A stretch of DNA of 64,000 nucleotides from Acidimicrobiia bacterium (GCA_035304485.1 DATGPZ010000082.1:570-64569); one strand, 5' to 3'; shown: positions 7,520 to 55,723, numbered from the stretch's first letter. Numbers and translations are program-made. The notes: generated by a model not told the origin, from the letters alone.

Positions 7520-7990
7520 GTCGGAAGTCGGTTTGCGTGGTGGAGGGGGTCGGTTGCCTGTCCGCGGGTGGTGACGGTTTCGGGGACCGGGCGGTTGGAT
7601 GGCCCCGCTGACTGGTCAGCTCACTTGGGGTAGCCGTGGGGGGTGTGGGGGCGTACCCCCACATGGTCAGCACTGTCGGAAGTCGGTTTGCGTGGTGGAG
7701 GGGGTCGGTTGCCTGTCCGCGGGTGGTGACGGTTTCGCGGACCGGGCGGTTGGATGGCCCCGTTGACTGGTCAGCTCGGTTGGGGTAGCCGTGGGGGTGT
7801 GGGGGAGTACCCCCACATGGTCAGCACTGCGGAGGTCGGTCTGCGTGGCGGAGGGGGTCCGTCGCCCCGCTCGCCTGGTTCGTGAGATTGCGGGAGGTCC
7901 GGTCGAGGGTTCGAGAAGGCCCGGTCGGCTCATCAGCTCGAGGCGGGTAGCTGAGGGGGAGTTGGGGAGTGCCGGCAGATGATCAGCACC
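7520..7990. repeat. Tandem repeat of about 150-bp units (two near-identical copies plus a degenerate third), MIRU/VNTR-like
   Basis: Unit = gtcggaagtcggtttgcgtggtggagggggtcggttgcctgtccgcgggtggtgacggtttcg...gtgggggcgtacccccacatggtcagcact, repeated at 7520 and 7670 with about 5 mismatches. The third copy (about 7820-7990) is about 60% similar. Each unit carries the hairpin gtggggg-ngta-cccccac. Confidence 0.85.
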
Positions 7991-8007
7991 GTGGAGATGG
8001 AAAGGGA

Positions 8008-8040
8008 CTGTGTGGAGGAGGGTCCCTCCACACAGTCCCT
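8008..8040. terminator. Perfect 13-bp-arm inverted repeat, likely a bidirectional terminator
   Basis: gactgtgtggagg-agggtcc-ctccacacagtc directly downstream of the HbhA-like gene stop (minus strand) and closing the convergent intergenic region. Confidence 0.45.
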
Positions 8041-8048
8041 TTCGGATT

Positions 8049-28524: not shown

Positions 28525-28562
28525 GGCAGCTCACTCCCGACTCCTCGATACCGACTTGCGAC

Positions 28563-29186
28563 TCACCCGAGCCTCGCCGCATCGATCAGATAGACGACCG
28601 TGAAGATGACGATCCAGATGATGTCGACGAAGTGCCAGTAGAGACCGACCATCTCGAGGTTCATTCCCCGCTTCTCGGAGAGGCTCCCCTTGAAACGGGA
28701 GATGCCCCACAGAGAGAGGAGCATGACGATCCCCACGGCGACGTGGAAGCCGTGGAAGCCGGTGAGCATGTAGAACGCCGAGGTCACCGGGTTGGTGGTC
28801 AGCTTCATGTCGTAGTGGGTGATGAACTCCGTGAACTCGAAGACCTGGCCCGCCAGGAACACCGAGCCCAGGGCGGCAGTGGCGAATATCCACGTCCGGG
28901 CTTGCGCCTGGTCGTCCCTGGAGAGGGCGTTGTGGGCCAGCACCATCGTCAGTGAGCTCATCAGCAACACGAACGAGCTCACCGAGGTGAAGGGGATGTC
29001 GTAGATCTCCGCCGGGTAGATCGAGAACCCGGGTCGGTAGGTGTAGAGCAGGTAGTTGGTGATCAGGGCTCCGAAGAAGAGGAACTCGGAGCTGAGGAAG
29101 ACCCACATGCCCAGCTTGCGGTTGTCGACCCCGGTCGATTCGTGCTCGGCGTGTGCCACGGTGCCCTCGTGGGCCAGGTCGGCCAT
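28563..29186 (-). CDS. ctaE: Cytochrome c oxidase subunit III
   Basis: 207 aa. Conserved COX3 blocks (GFHGFHV, YWHFVD). Confidence 0.85.
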   Translation of the reverse strand: MADLAHEGTVAHAEHESTGVDNRKLGMWVFLSSEFLFFGALITNYLLYTYRPGFSIYPAEIYDIPFTSVSSFVLLMSSLTMVLAHNALSRDDQAQARTWIFATAALGSVFLAGQVFEFTEFITHYDMKLTTNPVTSAFYMLTGFHGFHVAVGIVMLLSLWGISRFKGSLSEKRGMNLEMVGLYWHFVDIIWIVIFTVVYLIDAARLG

Positions 29187-31252
29187 CAGTGCTCCTCCTC
29201 AGGGGCGTCGACTACGGAGGCGAGCTCGGCCTCCTCCTCGGGCTCCTCGTGATGAGGGTGCTCGTCCTCCACCGGCTCCACGCCCCAGCCGATGAAGGCG
29301 ATCAGCATCAGCAGGGCACCTGCCGCCATCAGGGCCTTGCCCCAGGCCTGGACGTGGTAGATGGTTCCCCAGCCGATCAAGGGCGTTGCCATGCCTACCA
29401 GGAAGGGGAAGTACGACGGGTTGGGCAGGTGGACCGGCTCCGGCGGGTTGGTCCCGGTCTCTTCGAGCTCGGCGATCAAGCGGTCGGCATCTTCCCGCCT
29501 AACTGCCCGGCCCTCGTCGTCCTCGGCGTACTTGCGACGCCAGAAGTCGTCGAGTGACTCGATGACCGGGTTGACGCCGAAGTTGTATTCGGGGGTCGGG
29601 TTGGGAGTCGTCCACTCGACCGTGCGTGCGTCCCAGGGATCCAGGCCCGATGGCTCACCGTGAGTCTTGGAACGCCACCAGTTGTACATGAAGACCAGGA
29701 TCGACAGGGCGATGAGGAAGGCACCCACTGTCTCGACTTGGTTCCAGAGCTCCAAGCCCGCCTCTTCCGGGTACTTCCAAGTCCGCCGGACCATCCCCTG
29801 GAGGCCGAGCCAGTGCATCGGCCCGAAAGTGAGGTTCATTCCGATGAACATCAGCCAGAAGTGGATCTTTCCGAGCCGCTCGTTCATCAGGCGCCCGCGG
29901 AGCTTCGGGTACCAGAAGTAGAGGCCGGAGAAGAGTCCGAAGATGGCGCCGCCGAAGAGGACGTAGTGGAAGTGCGCCACGATGTAGTAGGTGTCGGTCT
30001 GCTGCCAGTCCGAGGGGACGATCGAGTGGGTCACGCCGGACAGACCGCCGATCACGAACAACGCCACGAAACCGACCGAGAACAGCATCGCGGTGTTGAA
30101 CTTGATCTTTCCCATCCACATAGTGCCGAGCCAGTTGAAGATCTTGATCCCCGTCGGTACGGCGATCGTCATGGTGGAGAGGCCGAAGGCTGCCTGGGCG
30201 ACAGGGCTGATGCCCGAGGCGAACATGTGGTGGGCCCACACGCCGAAACCGAGGAAGGCGATGGCGGCTCCGGCGAAGACGACGGCCGAGTAGCCGAACA
30301 GCGGCTTGCGGCTGAACACCGGGATGACCTCAGACACGATGCCCATTGCCGGGAGGATCAGGATGTAGACCTCGGGGTGGCCGAACAGCCAGAACATGTG
30401 CTGCCACAGGATGGGGTCACCCCCCGCCGACGCTTGGAAGAACACGGTTCCGAACTGGCGGTCGAAGGTGGCCATGAAGAGGGCCACGGCGATGATCGGC
30501 AGCGAGAAGAGCATCAGGAAGGCCACGATCGTCGTCATCCACGAGAACACCGGGGCCCGCAGGAGTCGCATGCCCTTGGCCCGCATGTTGAAGAAGGTGA
30601 CGATGAAGTTGACGGACGAGATGAGCGACGCCAACCCCAGGATCTGGAGGCCTATCGCCCAGTAGTCCATGGCAGTGCCGGCCGAGTAGAACGGACCGGC
30701 ATGGGGTTGGTATCCGAACCACCCACCGTTCGGCGAGTCGGCGAGGAAGTTGAATCCGCCCGGGCCTCCGTTCACGGGGATGTTCCCGGTGGCGAGGCCG
30801 TCGGGCGAGATCGGCGCGAGGGCGTTGCCGAAGATGAAGGTCGAGTAGAGGAAGATGCCTCCGAAGAAGAAGATCCACCAGGAGAGGGCGTTCAGACGGG
30901 GGAAGGCCACGTCCCGGGCACCCAACTGCAGGGGCAGCAGGTAGTTGAAGAACGCCGCACTCACCGGCATCACGAAGAGGAAGATCATCGTGGTGCCGTG
31001 CATCGTGAAAAGCGAGTTGTAGGCGCCGGCCGTCAGGAACTCCGATTCGGCCTGGGCGAGGTGGACCCGCAGCAACAGGGCCTCGATGCCGCCGAGGAGG
31101 AAGAAGAAGAAGGCGGCGTAGCCGTACATGATGCCGATCCGCTTGTGATCGACTGTCGTGATCCACGACCACAGGCCCCGCTCGCCGCGGGGTTTCCGGT
31201 AGATGGTCGTGACCGGTCGTTCGGCAACCAGTCGTTCGGCAACCTCAGTCAT
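29186..31252 (-). CDS. ctaD: Cytochrome c oxidase subunit I with approximately 110-aa C-terminal extension (2 extra TM helices plus acidic tail)
   Basis: 688 aa. Heme-copper oxidase subunit I core (WFFGHPEVY, HHMF), followed by an additional hydrophobic segment and a His/Glu-rich tail. Confidence 0.85.
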   Translation of the reverse strand: MTEVAERLVAERPVTTIYRKPRGERGLWSWITTVDHKRIGIMYGYAAFFFFLLGGIEALLLRVHLAQAESEFLTAGAYNSLFTMHGTTMIFLFVMPVSAAFFNYLLPLQLGARDVAFPRLNALSWWIFFFGGIFLYSTFIFGNALAPISPDGLATGNIPVNGGPGGFNFLADSPNGGWFGYQPHAGPFYSAGTAMDYWAIGLQILGLASLISSVNFIVTFFNMRAKGMRLLRAPVFSWMTTIVAFLMLFSLPIIAVALFMATFDRQFGTVFFQASAGGDPILWQHMFWLFGHPEVYILILPAMGIVSEVIPVFSRKPLFGYSAVVFAGAAIAFLGFGVWAHHMFASGISPVAQAAFGLSTMTIAVPTGIKIFNWLGTMWMGKIKFNTAMLFSVGFVALFVIGGLSGVTHSIVPSDWQQTDTYYIVAHFHYVLFGGAIFGLFSGLYFWYPKLRGRLMNERLGKIHFWLMFIGMNLTFGPMHWLGLQGMVRRTWKYPEEAGLELWNQVETVGAFLIALSILVFMYNWWRSKTHGEPSGLDPWDARTVEWTTPNPTPEYNFGVNPVIESLDDFWRRKYAEDDEGRAVRREDADRLIAELEETGTNPPEPVHLPNPSYFPFLVGMATPLIGWGTIYHVQAWGKALMAAGALLMLIAFIGWGVEPVEDEHPHHEEPEEEAELASVVDAPEEEH

Positions 31253-31295: not shown

Positions 31296-31323
31296 GAACT
31301 TCCGACTTCCGACTTCCGACTTC
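31296..31323 (-). repeat. (GTCGGAA)4 heptamer tract in the ctaC-ctaD intercistronic spacer
   Basis: Plus strand ttccgac x4 ends directly at the ctaC stop codon (minus-strand reading: TGA GTCGGAA GTCGGAA GTCGGAA GTCGGAA). About 45 nt upstream of the ctaD RBS GGAGGG. Confidence 0.9.
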
Positions 31324-31327
31324 CGAC

Positions 31328-32416
31328 TCATTGGTTGCTCCTCAACCAAGCCACCAGTGCGTCGATATCCGACTCCGTCAGACCCAGATCCGGCATGAAG
31401 CTCCCCGGCTTGACGCTCGGCGGATCGGCCAGCCAGCGCTTCAGAGCTTCCTCGAAGTCCTCGCCTTGAGTCGGCAGGACGGCGCCGGCGAAGCGGGTCC
31501 GGTACTCGTCGCCGAAGTGGGTGAGGTTGGGGCCGTTGAACATGTCGCGCTCGACCACGTTGTCCTGGTCGTCGCCCGGCAGATCGAGGGCGTGACACTG
31601 CACGCACTGGCCCTGTTGGAACACCTGGAGGCCATCGAATTCCGGAGTCCCTTCTTCCGGCAACGGCGCCGGCTCGAGTTGCCGGGCGATCCAGGCCTCG
31701 AATTCGGCCCGGTCGACCGCCTCGACTTGCGCCCGCATGAGTGAGTGGGACAGGCCGCAGAACTCGGCACAGTGGGCGTGATAGGTCCCGGGCTGGTCTG
31801 CCTGGAGGCGAAGAACGGTCTCCTGGCCCGGGATCAAGTAGCGCTTGCCGTTGAGCTTCGGCACCCAGAAGTTGTGCACGACGTCTTCGGAGGAGAGCAC
31901 GGCACACACCTCTTCGTCGGCTGGGATCACCATGGTGTTCGCCGTTTCGATCTCACGACCTTCCGGGATGCCTTCGAGGTTGGCGTAACGGAACTCGAAC
32001 CACCACTGGTGCCCGATCACCTCCACCCGCATGGCGTCGGGGTCGCATTCCGTGAGGTCGAAGACCGTCTGCACGGTGGGGACGGCGATAGTGGCGAGGA
32101 CGAGAGCCGGAACCACGGTCCAGATCACCTCGAGCTTGGCGTTTCCGTGGATCTGGCGAGGCTCTTTTCGCCCCGGGCGGTCCCGGAACAGGATGGCGGC
32201 GACGATGATCGCCGCCTGCACGAAGATGAACACTCCGGCCGCAATCCAGAAGACAGGCCAGAAGAGGTCGTCGATCGCCCGGGCGAACGGCCCTTGAGGG
32301 TCGAGCGAGTCGAGAGGAGCATTCTCGACCGTCGGCTCGATGAACTGACAGGCCGACACCGCCAACAGCAGGGCGGAGAGACCGATGAGGCGGAGGAATC
32401 TAGCTGGTGATCCCAT
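31328..32416 (-). CDS. ctaC: Cytochrome c oxidase subunit II with fused C-terminal cytochrome c domain (caa3-type)
   Basis: 362 aa. CuA site HAHCAEFCGLSH. C-terminal heme c motif CVQCH. Confidence 0.85.
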   Translation of the reverse strand: MGSPARFLRLIGLSALLLAVSACQFIEPTVENAPLDSLDPQGPFARAIDDLFWPVFWIAAGVFIFVQAAIIVAAILFRDRPGRKEPRQIHGNAKLEVIWTVVPALVLATIAVPTVQTVFDLTECDPDAMRVEVIGHQWWFEFRYANLEGIPEGREIETANTMVIPADEEVCAVLSSEDVVHNFWVPKLNGKRYLIPGQETVLRLQADQPGTYHAHCAEFCGLSHSLMRAQVEAVDRAEFEAWIARQLEPAPLPEEGTPEFDGLQVFQQGQCVQCHALDLPGDDQDNVVERDMFNGPNLTHFGDEYRTRFAGAVLPTQGEDFEEALKRWLADPPSVKPGSFMPDLGLTESDIDALVAWLRSNQ

Positions 32417-52778: not shown

Positions 52779-54290
52779 ATGGAGAAGAGAACCCGCGCAG
52801 CAACGGCCGGCTCGCTGGCCGCGATGGCTGCCTTCGGAGCGAGTGAGCTGACGGCCGGGCTGCTCGGATCGGTGCCGTCGTTGGTCGAGTCCATCGGTGA
52901 TGTGATCGTCGATACCGTCCCGACGCCCATCAAAGACTGGGCGATAGCGGTGTTCGGGGTATACGACAAGCTCGCGCTCATCATCGGGATCATCGCGGTG
53001 GGCCTCCTGGTGGGGGCGGTGGTTGGGCTTCTCGCTGCCGGCAAGCGATGGGTGGGTCCCTTCGTGTTCGTCGTCTTCGGCGTAGCAGGGGTGGTCGCGG
53101 CGGTGTCCCAAGGCGAGTCGCTGTTGGGCTCAGTAGTCGGCGCGGCGGTGGCGGTGGCGGTCGGTGTGGTCGTGCTCGACTTCCTCCTCGAGCGCGCCGA
53201 GAGGCCTTCGCCCGAGATGGACGAGTCGCGGCGGAGGTTCCTCGTGACAGCAGGAGCGACGGTGGTGGTGGTCGCTCTCGCCGCCGGCACCGGTCGCATG
53301 CTGATCGGTCGGAGTCGTCGCCTGGCGGCACGCCGGGGAGCGGTGGACCTGCCGTCTCCTGTCGAGGCCGCCCCTGCGCCGGCTCCGGAGATGCAGATGG
53401 ACGTCGAAGGGCTGAGCTCGCTCGTCACCTCCAACTCGGACTTCTACCGAATCGACACCGCCCTTTCGATACCCCAGGTGGATATCGAGACGTGGACCTT
53501 GAAGATCACAGGAATGGTGGACCGGCCATACGAGATGGACTTCGAGGAGCTCCTGGCGATGGACATGGTCGAGCGCTACGTGACTCTCTCCTGCGTCTCC
53601 AACCGAGTGGGCGGGGATCTGGTGGGCAACGCCAAGTGGCTAGGGGTCCCACTGTCGGCGGTGCTCGATCGAGCAGGTGTGATCCCGGGAGCGAGCCAGG
53701 TCGTGGGCCGCGCCGTCGACGGCTTCACCGTCGGCTTTCCCACCCAAGCCGTGTACGACGGACGGGAGGCGCTGGTCGCGGTGGGGATGAACGGAGAGCC
53801 CCTCCCGGCCGAGCACGGCTTTCCGGCCAGGCTGGTCGTGGCCGGGCTGTACGGATACGTGTCAGCCACGAAATGGCTGGCCGAGATCGAGCTGACCACA
53901 TGGGACGACTTCGATGCCTATTGGGTCCCGAGAGGATGGTCGAAGGTCGGTCCGGTGAAGACCCAGTCGCGCATCGACACTCCGCGGTCGGGCGAACAGA
54001 TCGGCACCGAGCCGCGTGCCATCGCCGGGGTGGCATGGGCGCCGAACGTGGGCATCGAGCGTGTCGAGGTCCAGATCGACGACCAGGCCTGGGTGGAAGC
54101 GGAACTGGCGGAGTCCCTGGCCGATGACTCGTGGCGCCAGTGGAAGCTGGATTGGGCTCCTACGGCGGGACAGCACAGGATCCGAGTTCGGGCCACCGAC
54201 AAGTCCGGGTACACACAGACGGACCAGATGGCGCCGCCTGCGCCCGATGGAGCGACCGGCTGGCACACCATCCGTGTAACCGTCACCTGA
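52779..54290 (+). CDS. Membrane-anchored molybdopterin-dependent oxidoreductase (sulfite oxidase family, with C-terminal Ig-like domain)
   Basis: 503 aa. 3-4 N-terminal TM helices, then the SO-family Moco domain (VTLSCVSNRVGG with the conserved Cys). The stop is followed immediately by a GTCGGAA tract. Confidence 0.75.
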   Translation: MEKRTRAATAGSLAAMAAFGASELTAGLLGSVPSLVESIGDVIVDTVPTPIKDWAIAVFGVYDKLALIIGIIAVGLLVGAVVGLLAAGKRWVGPFVFVVFGVAGVVAAVSQGESLLGSVVGAAVAVAVGVVVLDFLLERAERPSPEMDESRRRFLVTAGATVVVVALAAGTGRMLIGRSRRLAARRGAVDLPSPVEAAPAPAPEMQMDVEGLSSLVTSNSDFYRIDTALSIPQVDIETWTLKITGMVDRPYEMDFEELLAMDMVERYVTLSCVSNRVGGDLVGNAKWLGVPLSAVLDRAGVIPGASQVVGRAVDGFTVGFPTQAVYDGREALVAVGMNGEPLPAEHGFPARLVVAGLYGYVSATKWLAEIELTTWDDFDAYWVPRGWSKVGPVKTQSRIDTPRSGEQIGTEPRAIAGVAWAPNVGIERVEVQIDDQAWVEAELAESLADDSWRQWKLDWAPTAGQHRIRVRATDKSGYTQTDQMAPPAPDGATGWHTIRVTVT

Positions 54291-54331
54291 GTCGGAAGTC
54301 GGACTGAGTCGGAAGTCGGAAGTCGGAAGTC
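54291..54331 (+). repeat. (GTCGGAA)n heptamer tract (2 + 4 copies) starting at the stop codon of the Mo-oxidoreductase gene
   Basis: tga gtcggaa gtcggac tga gtcggaa gtcggaa gtcggaa gtcggaa. Confidence 0.9.
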
Positions 54332-54335
54332 GGAA

Positions 54336-54721
54336 GACGCGTCTCACGTTCGAGTTCGTCGCGCGGTCCACCTTCGTCGGCGGGCGCGTCGGCGGTCCCG
54401 GTCATCACATGAGAGCGTTCCAAGCCGTCCTTGTCGCCCCGACGCGTCGACATCCAGCCGCAACACACAATGACCTCGCAATCCGTCCGATGGCGTCGAC
54501 GCGTCGACGGATCGGAGTGAGGCGTGCTGGTCTGCTCGCGGGACGAAGGGTCGGCCGATGCGTCGGTGATCCCGGCCATCACATGAGAGCGTTCCAAGCC
54601 GTCCTTGTCGCCCCGACGTGTCGCCGTCCAGCCGCAGCACACAATGATCTCGCGATCCGTCCGATGGCGTCGACGCGTCGACGGATCGGAGTGAAGCGTG
54701 CTGGTCTGCTCGCGGGCCGAT
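54336..54721. repeat. Two tandem copies of an approximately 181-bp unit, each carrying the 16-bp palindrome CGTCGACGCGTCGACG
   Basis: catcacatgagagcgttccaagccgtccttgtcgccccgacg...tccgatggcgtcgacgcgtcgacggatcggagtga[ag]gcgtgctggtctgctcgcggg occurs at about 54406 and about 54587 with about 93% identity. Confidence 0.85.
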
Positions 54722-54748
54722 TCCGACTTCCGACTTCCGTCTTCCGAC
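54722..54748 (-). repeat. (GTCGGAA)4 heptamer tract in inverted orientation, starting at the stop codon of the minus-strand gene 54749..55723
   Basis: Plus strand ttccgac ttccgac ttccgtc ttccgac tta. Read on the minus strand this is TAA GTCGGAA GACGGAA GTCGGAA GTCGGAA. Confidence 0.9.
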
Positions 54749-55723
54749 TTATTCGGCGTCTTGGGCGGAGACGGCCCAGGCGATGCCTTCGCTCGGGGAT
54801 TCGATCGCAACTCGCAACCACCATCCGATCTCGGGGCTGCCGTCGTGCCACAGGTACCAGCCGAGATCGTGGACGGCGTCACCGAGCCGATCCGGATCCG
54901 GCGGCCATTCCTCCCCGCCCAACTCGGTTGCCAGCCACCAAGCCGAGAAGCGTCCGGCGGCTCCTCCCCGGCGGCGTCCATGTGCCCCGCCGGAGGCTGC
55001 CGCCCAGGCGATCCAGGCCAGGGCTGTAGCCGGATCCACCCGCCTCAATGCGGCCCTTCGCAGCCCAAGTGCAGCCACCGCCCGCGACGCGTCACCCTCC
55101 ACGCATGTCGCCACGGAGCGTCCGTTGGACGAGTCGACCCAGTGTTCCGTGACCGCCTGCAGCGCCCGGATTCCGTCGGGGTCGTCGACGGGGGGACCGG
55201 GCTCGGGCAGCTCCTCGAAACTCCACTCCGGGAAGGGCGGGGTGGGCTCCTCCACTCGATCCGAGTGATAGATCGGAAATGTATATCGGGACTCCCAGTC
55301 GAGGAGCCGGAGGGGCAACTCCATGATCATCGAGTCGACGGATGCTCCCTCCAGGTCTTCGCCTCTCACCACCCTCTCATGAGCCACGAAGGCGCGTTCG
55401 GGGCCATCTTCCAGATGGGCGTCCAAATCGTCCCACGTGAGTCTGCCGGCGACCACCTCTGGCAGTGGCCCGAGGGTGAAGCGGGTGGGCCCCTCGGTGA
55501 CGGCCGGCCCGGCCGACTCCGGCGGACCGTCCAGCGCCAGGCGGTAGCGGATGTACTCGGGGATCGCCCAGAGTTGCTTGCCGCGCTCTACCGCTTCCTC
55601 ACACAGCAGGCGAACGGTGCGCATCGTCTGCCAATCCCGTCCCTGGACGAGGCCGTCCACGATCCTGACCAACTCGTCGGTGTCAGAACCCTCGATGGCT
55701 CTCCGGATCCTCTCGTCGGTCAT
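54749..55723 (-). CDS. Conserved hypothetical protein (Trp-rich C-terminus)
   Basis: 324 aa with consistent coding signal. No recognisable domain. ATGA-coupled to the downstream sulfurtransferase. Confidence 0.5.
   Translation of the reverse strand: MTDERIRRAIEGSDTDELVRIVDGLVQGRDWQTMRTVRLLCEEAVERGKQLWAIPEYIRYRLALDGPPESAGPAVTEGPTRFTLGPLPEVVAGRLTWDDLDAHLEDGPERAFVAHERVVRGEDLEGASVDSMIMELPLRLLDWESRYTFPIYHSDRVEEPTPPFPEWSFEELPEPGPPVDDPDGIRALQAVTEHWVDSSNGRSVATCVEGDASRAVAALGLRRAALRRVDPATALAWIAWAAASGGAHGRRRGGAAGRFSAWWLATELGGEEWPPDPDRLGDAVHDLGWYLWHDGSPEIGWWLRVAIESPSEGIAWAVSAQDAE

Follow-up and report, generated by a model that had tools for sequence, protein, structure and literature searches.

A putative stem-loop insertion bracketed by inverted heptamer arrays between two convergent genes of an Acidimicrobiia bacterium

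The DNA analyzed here is a stretch of 64,000 nucleotides from an Acidimicrobiia bacterium (GCA_035304485.1, DATGPZ010000082.1:570-64569), referred to below as the window; the coverage of the source genome was this 64-kb window. Within it, a gene for a molybdopterin oxidoreductase (Mo-oxidoreductase) and a gene of the DUF6183 family converge on a spacer of 458 nt, in a neighborhood that includes NucS. The spacer is made up of two inverted arrays of the heptamer GTCGGAA, here called arms, and an interior that consists mainly of two long tandem units, here called the minisatellite. The features of the locus were obtained by open reading frame (ORF) calling, Tandem Repeats Finder (TRF), repeat and motif searches, and folding:

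52779-54290, plus strand: molybdopterin oxidoreductase gene, 503 aa (ORF call, Pfam PF00174)
54288-54290, plus strand: TGA stop codon of the 503-aa gene, with the left array beginning at the next base
54291-54336, plus strand: left G-rich heptamer arm (TRF and repeat search)
54337-54375, no strand: single-copy linker from the left arm to the first long unit (sequence and repeat search)
54376-54549, no strand: minisatellite unit 1, 174 bp (TRF and repeat search)
54486-54516, no strand: GC-rich near-palindrome of unit 1, with a perfect 16-bp core at 54494-54509 (repeat search, motif search and folding)
54550-54720, no strand: minisatellite unit 2, 171 bp, truncated by the right arm (TRF and repeat search)
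54660-54690, no strand: near-palindrome of unit 2, with its core at 54668-54683 (repeat search and motif search)
54721-54748, minus strand: right arm, complement of the left arm (TRF and repeat search)
54749-54751, minus strand: TAA stop codon of the DUF6183 gene (ORF call)
54749-55723, minus strand: DUF6183 gene, 324 aa, converging on the Mo-oxidoreductase gene (ORF call)

The left arm reads GTCGGAA GTCGGA CTGA (GTCGGAA)x4 G. A first-pass annotation, made from the sequence alone, had described it as (GTCGGAA)6; the tract lies where it was placed, but it is really two plus four copies split by CTGA. The interruption is a 17-nt duplication (CTGAGTCGGAAGTCGGA twice) that carried the stop codon along with it, and TRF reported a period-7 array of 6.3 copies at 54290-54336. 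The right tract, annotated as (TTCCGAC)4, was found on the plus strand as four copies with one mismatch (TRF span 54717-54750); on the minus strand it reads GTCGGAA GACGGAA GTCGGAA GTCGGAA, immediately after the DUF6183 TAA. The same annotation had the two tracts as reverse complements of each other, each touching a stop codon, and both statements held: the inverted-repeat search returned arms of 34 nt, 91% complementary and separated by 385 nt, and the tracts abut the TGA and the TAA listed above. A transcript from either converging gene would thus carry a G-rich array right after its stop codon and a C-rich array about 400 nt further on.

Between the arms, the two units described in the first-pass annotation were present and 92–93% identical, with a period of 174 bp (58 x 3) in place of the approximately 181 bp first given. 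The perfect 16-bp palindrome inside a longer near-palindrome was located in both units; its two positions, 54494-54509 and 54668-54683, are the only ones in the window that match CGTCGACGCGTCGACG, also with two mismatches allowed. A comparison of strains, which had been proposed at the same time, revealed that the number of units varies among contigs of the same species (98.7–99.9% identical). Two 174-bp units are present in the window and in three further contigs (L150, L151 and L158), whereas L152 has three units plus a 58-bp sub-repeat (spacer of 689 nt, versus 458 nt in the window) and L153 has two units plus the 58-bp sub-repeat. The units formed a mosaic of variants in all of the strains compared, and both heptamer arms were unchanged in every strain read. 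The 16-bp palindrome was kept in nearly all unit variants of every strain; in one variant the outer stem differs at one position. The changes in copy number would be due to slipped-strand mispairing or unequal recombination and probably have no function of their own.

The origin of the spacer was examined in the next-closest relatives, in which the oxidoreductase has an amino-acid identity of approximately 64–65% and around 25 flanking genes are kept in the same order. In two of them (L165 and L167) the two converging stop codons are only 3 bp apart and the C-termini of both genes are orthologous. Therefore, the whole 458-nt block, arms and interior together, was gained in this lineage, and the comparison with these syntenic genomes identifies the spacer as a lineage-specific insertion. 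Such an element would be dispensable, and possibly selfish, because it is absent from the relatives.

Folding predictions were carried out on the complete spacer. The duplex between the two arms had a predicted energy of -58.7 kcal/mol in the plus-strand RNA and -55.4 kcal/mol in the minus-strand RNA, compared with -23.7 +/- 4.9 kcal/mol for random partners. The arm pairing probability in the full-spacer ensemble was 0.92, and the fold of the whole spacer gave z values of -4.5 (plus strand) and -6.4 (minus strand). According to these models, pairing of the arms would enclose the interior behind a duplex of about 30 bp.

This arrangement resembles the intervening sequences (IVS) that interrupt 23S rRNA genes in some bacteria and that encode S23p proteins of the PF05635 family, as in Coxiella burnetii, Leptospira and Azospirillum lipoferum (L190). 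The Coxiella IVS has been described as a selfish element of 428–444 nt with an S23p ORF, a 28-bp terminal stem that is cut by RNase III, and tandem GACAGAT heptamers at its 5' end whose number varies between strains (PMC4990558). The likeness extends to the size (428–444 nt there, 458–464 nt here), the terminal inverted repeats with a stem of around 28–34 bp, the arms of purine-rich tandem heptamers (GACAGAT, GACAGAG and GACGGAG there, GTCGGAA and GACGGAA here), the sporadic presence or absence among relatives, and the strain-level variation in repeat number inside the element. By contrast, the spacer studied here lies between protein-coding genes and not in helix 25 or 45 of 23S rRNA, and its interior is a minisatellite with no PF05635 ORF or remnant of one. 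Our preferred reading, to which we give a probability of about one half, is that the spacer is a single ORF-less, IVS-like stem-loop insertion of this lineage. By analogy with the PF05635/S23p elements of 23S rRNA, the arm duplex would be a substrate for RNase III, and cleavage at the arms would terminate or process the mRNAs of both convergent genes shortly after the stop codons. Exonucleases might meet additional barriers in the internal GC-rich hairpins, and the minisatellite would be a by-product of slippage or unequal exchange. A selfish or neutral element is more likely than a dedicated regulator.

Several observations weigh against this reading. A PF05635 profile run against the six-frame translation of the spacer gave only E > 1, with no ORF or remnant, and the interior had no nucleotide similarity to the PF05635 cassettes described below; a decayed PF05635 gene in the interior was rejected on these two results. 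No consensus promoter or terminator-like site (a GC-rich hairpin followed by a U tract) was found within 54000-55000. The loop of 385 nt makes co-transcriptional closure of the modelled stem uncertain. Finally, three of the five heptamer arrays of the window are solo, so the heptamer does not always have a partner, and the arms of this locus could be independent of each other.

The other three arrays of the window are these:

7520-7989, plus strand: sister locus, with an array that starts at 7520 after the DUF4332 gene, the TGA being followed by GTCGGAAGTCGG
28525-28562, minus strand: degenerate array that follows a TGA directly, in an operon spacer of 38 nt
31298-31328, minus strand: solo array, (GTCGGAA)x4.4, in the ctaC-ctaD operon spacer, directly after the ctaC TGA

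Overall, GTCGGAAGTCGG was matched with at most one mismatch 16 times in the window, against 1.26 matches expected, and none of 100 shuffles reached 16. All five arrays begin at the first base past a stop codon, in the sense of that gene, and they share one register, TGA-GTCG or TAA-GTCG. The array at 28525-28562 fills its spacer and reads, after the TGA, GTCGCAA GTCGGTA TCGAGGA GTCGGGA and so on, a decayed state which suggests that arrays degrade in place. The ctaC array was invariant across nine strains. It lies inside an operon for cytochrome oxidase subunits II and I, and the presence of a perfect (GTCGGAA)4 there means that expression of the downstream gene is not blocked in any obvious way. 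Subunit II (31328-32416) has a C-terminal cytochrome c domain and is of the caa3 type; subunit I is encoded at 29186-31252.

At the sister locus, the TGA and GTCGGAAGTCGG lead into a 155-bp unit that is present in three copies, the third approximately 70% identical; each unit starts with GTCGGAAGTCGG and contains a GUGUGGGGG/CCCCCACAU hairpin. Three units were found in the window and in L197 (spacer of 529 nt) and two in L196 and L198 (374 nt). Since the copy number differs, this is a second strain-variable minisatellite. The first-pass annotation had taken the convergent spacer for a more elaborate version of the locus at 7520-8048; the two do share a post-stop heptamer and a strain-variable minisatellite (2 or 3 x 155 bp in the latter), but their units are unrelated. 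A long perfect hairpin was also observed at about 8003-8046, after the stop codon of the gene converging on the 7520-8048 locus.

A GTCGGAA-type array was also present in one of the syntenic relatives, at another site. In L165 (20869-21140) a SpoU/TrmL-like methyltransferase ORF runs through such an array, which gives it about 25 extra C-terminal residues. Coding regions may at times have their ends lengthened or replaced by arrays. The position of this array at the 3' end of a different gene shows that, within the class, arrays turn over between sites. Around 180 nt from the SpoU array there is a heptamer array of an unrelated unit, GTGGTAG.

The interior was searched for further copies. By blastn, the 174-bp unit had no second copy elsewhere in the window and no match among 72,556 plasmids. 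Exact 21-mers, which diverged copies would escape, gave no match in 185,579 species genomes, and in the JGI metagenomes the hairpin 21-mer detected only the orthologous locus and four unrelated chance matches to the palindrome. Therefore the idea that unit and palindrome form a dispersed family was not upheld: the 174-bp repeat is a local minisatellite. The proposed family of intergenic elements survives for the heptamer tracts, with five arrays in the window and many more in other phyla, but not for the 174-bp units. The description of the locus as a possible non-autonomous mobile element agrees with one fact, the absence of the whole block from syntenic relatives with a 3-bp spacer, but a second copy of the interior was not found in the collections searched.

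Coding and RNA functions of the interior were also considered. Its open frames give arginine-rich nonsense translations with no Pfam match, and GC is 0.61–0.75 at each codon position, compared with about 0.69/0.50/0.82 in real genes. Rfam 15 returned no match in the window at the gathering score, and no rRNA, tRNA or tmRNA is present there; at a relaxed E-value the best scores were 15.5 bits (threshold 50) and 11.7 bits (threshold 196). With z values of +0.2 to +0.7, the whole 174-bp unit did not fold better than its shuffles; mild significance (z -2.1) was limited to the local hairpin at 54470-54525 (plus-strand RNA, -28.5 kcal/mol). The differences between units in this hairpin include no clean compensatory pairs, with independent sequences too few for a covariation model. 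The suggestion of a structured non-coding RNA (ncRNA) was thus not supported by Rfam or by the folding of the unit. No result favored the other suggestion, a site for a dimeric protein at the palindrome.

While array loci were being read, genes of the PF05635 family (23S_rRNA_IVP, four-helix-bundle, Avd-like) were found between inverted arrays. In Acidimicrobiia other than the source bacterium (loci L169, L172, L173 and L105) a PF05635 gene is bracketed by (GTCGGAA)4 and (TTCCGAC)4, and a gene with these brackets is inserted between two acyl-CoA carboxylase genes. At this same carboxylase site in another lineage the arms are arrays of GTGAGAC, and a cassette between rpsG and fusA has arms of TTAGCTC. 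Genes with inverted array flanks were recorded at L105:169-887, L085:1850-2360, L169:1380-1960, L172:200-760, L174, L175 and L188-L195. Outside rRNA, too, there are PF05635 cassettes with the same arms.

An independent sample of eight plasmid PF05635 genes was also inspected, and seven of them were flanked by short tandem-repeat arrays, mostly purine-rich and inverted. Their sites include cas6-cas4 and cas10-cmr3, and parA-parB is also among the bracketed operon sites. One of the eight (L190) is inside a true 23S rRNA gene of Azospirillum, where its arms are GACAGAG/GACGGAG heptamers. The inverted-flank score had a median of 16 for 20 PF05635 genes and of 7 for 150 control genes (Mann-Whitney p = 3e-7). 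The flanking repeats are mostly 7-nt and purine-rich, with a unit that varies by lineage. The locus at cas6-cas4 in a Pseudanabaena plasmid (L189:380-1060) is an exception to the pattern: the array upstream of the PF05635 gene, (AAAGCTA)x17, and the one downstream, (AAAAGCC)x10, are very long and have direct and not inverted orientation, with inverted TTAGC arrays further upstream.

Judged by their sequences, GACAGAT, GACAGAG, GACGGAA and GTCGGAA are one family, and the right arm in the window itself holds a GACGGAA unit. The PF05635 protein is Avd-like and reportedly pentameric. A wider and more tentative proposal, which we consider clearly less probable than the reading of the single locus, is that the heptamer arrays over-represented in many bacteria are more than products of slippage: they would be the arms or solo remnants of a widespread, hitherto unrecognized class of stem-loop insertion cassettes related to 23S IVS, which would settle directly after stop codons and inside operons. 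The gene-bearing members would encode PF05635 proteins, which may recognize about four to five heptamers, and the locus in the window would be an ORF-less member whose loop acquired a minisatellite. No mention of a connection of heptamer arrays with PF05635 cassettes was met in the literature searched.

The distribution of the heptamer was analyzed by scanning one genome per species for (GTCGGAA)3, which gave at least 120 stretches; the genes around these arrays were called with a crude ORF caller. The matches listed come from Bacteroidota, Cyanobacteria, Planctomycetota, Verrucomicrobiota, Chloroflexota, Acidobacteriota, Proteobacteria, Patescibacteria and several Acidimicrobiia, with a G+C content from 0.29 to 0.72. 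Among them, 28 of 52 sense arrays have the upstream stop codon within 15 nt of their start (median 13 nt), compared with 4 of 49 antisense arrays (median 115 nt), and divergent intergenic regions are nearly array-free, with four cases. Among 123 (GTCGGAA)n arrays listed from other phyla, a C-rich partner is located downstream in 23 and upstream in 5. Both neighbors were called for 15 pairs; the two genes are co-directional in 11 of these and divergent in none. This fixed polarity and the co-directional settings indicate that the pair is a unit and not the meeting of two gene tails.

The heptamer is, moreover, one member of a broader phenomenon and not unique. (GTCGGAA)3 was present in 12 IMG/VR viral contigs (L128-L139), and its 12 viral matches compare with 2 and 8 for control heptamers of the same composition; as the second control is a near relative of the motif, the excess of GTCGGAA in viral contigs is only modest. 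In Nostoc (L029:2420-2436, L069, L113 and L121), one and the same conserved sequence, ACAGTTTTGTAACGG, comes after the (GAAGTCG)n arrays, which suggests that the Nostoc array belongs to a repeated element of larger size. The short-read (Logan) contigs of the species studied here (L001-L007, L154, L156 and L187) consistently end inside arrays, around 43 nt past the stop codon. With five arrays in 64 kb, contig breaks inside an array are consistent with many copies in the genome. In the protein database, most PF05635 genes are on contigs of 0.5–3 kb.

Stop-abutting heptamers have been described before. Heptamers are cited as the commonest long simple-sequence repeat (SSR) in bacteria (Mrazek 2007, as cited), and the arrays of Xanthomonas (GGGAATC) and of Nostoc and Anabaena (GGGGAYT) sit on the coding strand next to stop codons, show a preference for about four units, and form convergent inverted pairs in 70 of 186 cases (Rehm et al., 2015, PMC4692102). 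The arrays studied here are similar to these in their intergenic position close to or overlapping the stop codon of the upstream gene, on its coding strand, their approximately four units, their frequent convergent inverted pairs and the conservation of their positions between close relatives. They differ in the host, an Acidimicrobiia bacterium, and in that the pair encloses a 385-bp minisatellite. The TAACTGA repeats of Beggiatoaceae, Cyanobacteria and Bacteroidetes (MacGregor 2015, PMC4679880) and the cyanobacterial short tandemly repeated repetitive (STRR) heptamers also place one genome-specific heptamer at many intergenic sites, with a patchy distribution across phyla and enrichment in the same phyla. 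However, TAACTGA is located just upstream of start codons and provides stops in all frames, whereas GTCGGAA is located just after stop codons and has no stop in any frame.

These precedents bear on the strongest of the competing explanations, which we consider possible although rather unlikely: the arms would be two independent single-stranded arrays in 3' untranslated regions, acting as a protein site, a two-tier G-quadruplex or a Shine-Dalgarno (SD)-like ribosome contact, and the minisatellite would be unrelated to them. The common post-stop register of the five window arrays, three of them solo, agrees with it, as do the bias of the listed matches toward sense arrays close to a stop codon and the approximately 100 of 123 listed arrays that lack a partner. 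The invariance of arrays of about four units between strains, a unit number for which a preference is likewise reported in Xanthomonas, points the same way. Nevertheless, this explanation needs three separate events in an ancestral 3-bp spacer, where the single event of our preferred reading is more parsimonious, and convergent pairs are also frequent between co-directional genes, a setting in which no stop codon precedes the second array. As to the mechanisms, GG runs with 5-nt loops make weak quadruplexes, and three-tier quadruplexes cannot form because the GGAAGTC unit has GG runs and not GGG or GGGG. The SD-like variant is opposed by the abundance of arrays in Bacteroidota, a phylum in which SD pairing is little used. 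For the heptamer, SD-like pairing, Rho rut sites and two-tier G-quadruplexes are kept as minor possibilities only. An apparent match between the rotation GAAGUCG and positions 1491-1497 of E. coli 16S rRNA was dropped, since chance is expected to produce a 7-mer match to rRNA.

An origin as a miniature inverted-repeat transposable element (MITE) is still less likely. In that case a non-autonomous DNA transposon, with the heptamer arrays as its terminal inverted repeats, serving as multiple transposase-binding sites, would have inserted at a stop codon. Inverted termini of fixed polarity, the present/absent difference from the relatives, the breaking of short-read contigs in arrays, as multi-copy sequence would cause, and the PF05635 cassettes with the same termini at different conserved-operon sites would all be expected of it. 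On the other side, a second copy of the interior was not found in anything searched (by exact 21-mers in the genome and metagenome collections), array length and unit sequence differ widely between sites, and there is no associated transposase, PF05635 not being a known one. The flanks, TGA and TTA, do not form a clean target-site duplication, although both are stop codons under selection and could not be distinguished from a decayed TNA duplication.

Neutral replication slippage alone, with neither element identity nor function, is a slightly poorer explanation and an improbable one. Heptamers are reportedly the commonest long SSR class in bacteria, which has been attributed to polymerase slippage, same-composition control heptamers also form arrays in viral contigs, and the minisatellite does differ between strains. 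Slippage leaves unexplained, however, how the same heptamer came to five sites in one post-stop register, the sense bias and the 23:5 polarity of the pairs among the matches listed, the invariance of an array in nine strains, and where the approximately 385 bp of sequence added to a spacer of 3 bp came from.

Least probable of all is that the 174-bp units are a small structured or cis-regulatory RNA, or their palindromes operators for a dimeric DNA-binding or nucleoid protein, since the palindrome kept in nearly every variant and the mildly significant local hairpin are set against the lack of an Rfam match, a unit that folds no better than its shuffles, the lack of promoter- or terminator-like sites, a copy number free to vary between strains, the absence of the unit from relatives, a palindrome that occurs nowhere else in 64 kb and the lack of an adjacent regulator gene.

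The minisatellites themselves have parallels in known repeats. Like the mycobacterial interspersed repetitive unit-variable number tandem repeats (MIRU-VNTR) of Actinobacteria, the 174-bp and 155-bp loci consist of tandem units of around 50–180 bp in short intergenic regions abutting stop codons and are polymorphic between strains. Unlike MIRU, whose related units are dispersed over dozens of loci, the two loci here have units of their own, neither of which occurs again in the window. GC-rich palindromes that lie downstream of genes and to which a role as RNA hairpins is ascribed are also known from repetitive extragenic palindromes (REP), bacterial interspersed mosaic elements (BIME) and the CGTC-tagged REP, the last of which have an unpaired CGTC tag, a stem of 8–9 bp starting with A/T pairs, a loop of 4–5 nt and a CCA tail (Di Nocera 2013, PMC3733652). 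An assignment to CGTC-tagged REP was rejected, as CGTC is inside the stem, the geometry differs, there is no CCA tail and only two tandem copies are present.

Both stop-abutting heptamer arrays and IVS-like stem-loop elements were thus already known, and the locus is a variant combining features of both; the link between the arrays and PF05635 is the part most worth following up. One architecture links rRNA intervening sequences, PF05635 operon cassettes (acyl-CoA carboxylase, rpsG-fusA, cas6-cas4 and cas10-cmr3) and ORF-less inserts, and this link may tie the abundance of heptamer SSR at gene ends to PF05635 intervening-sequence elements. In addition, heptamer repeats systematically break short-read assemblies, and the 174-bp and 155-bp minisatellites are usable as strain markers in this Acidimicrobiia lineage.

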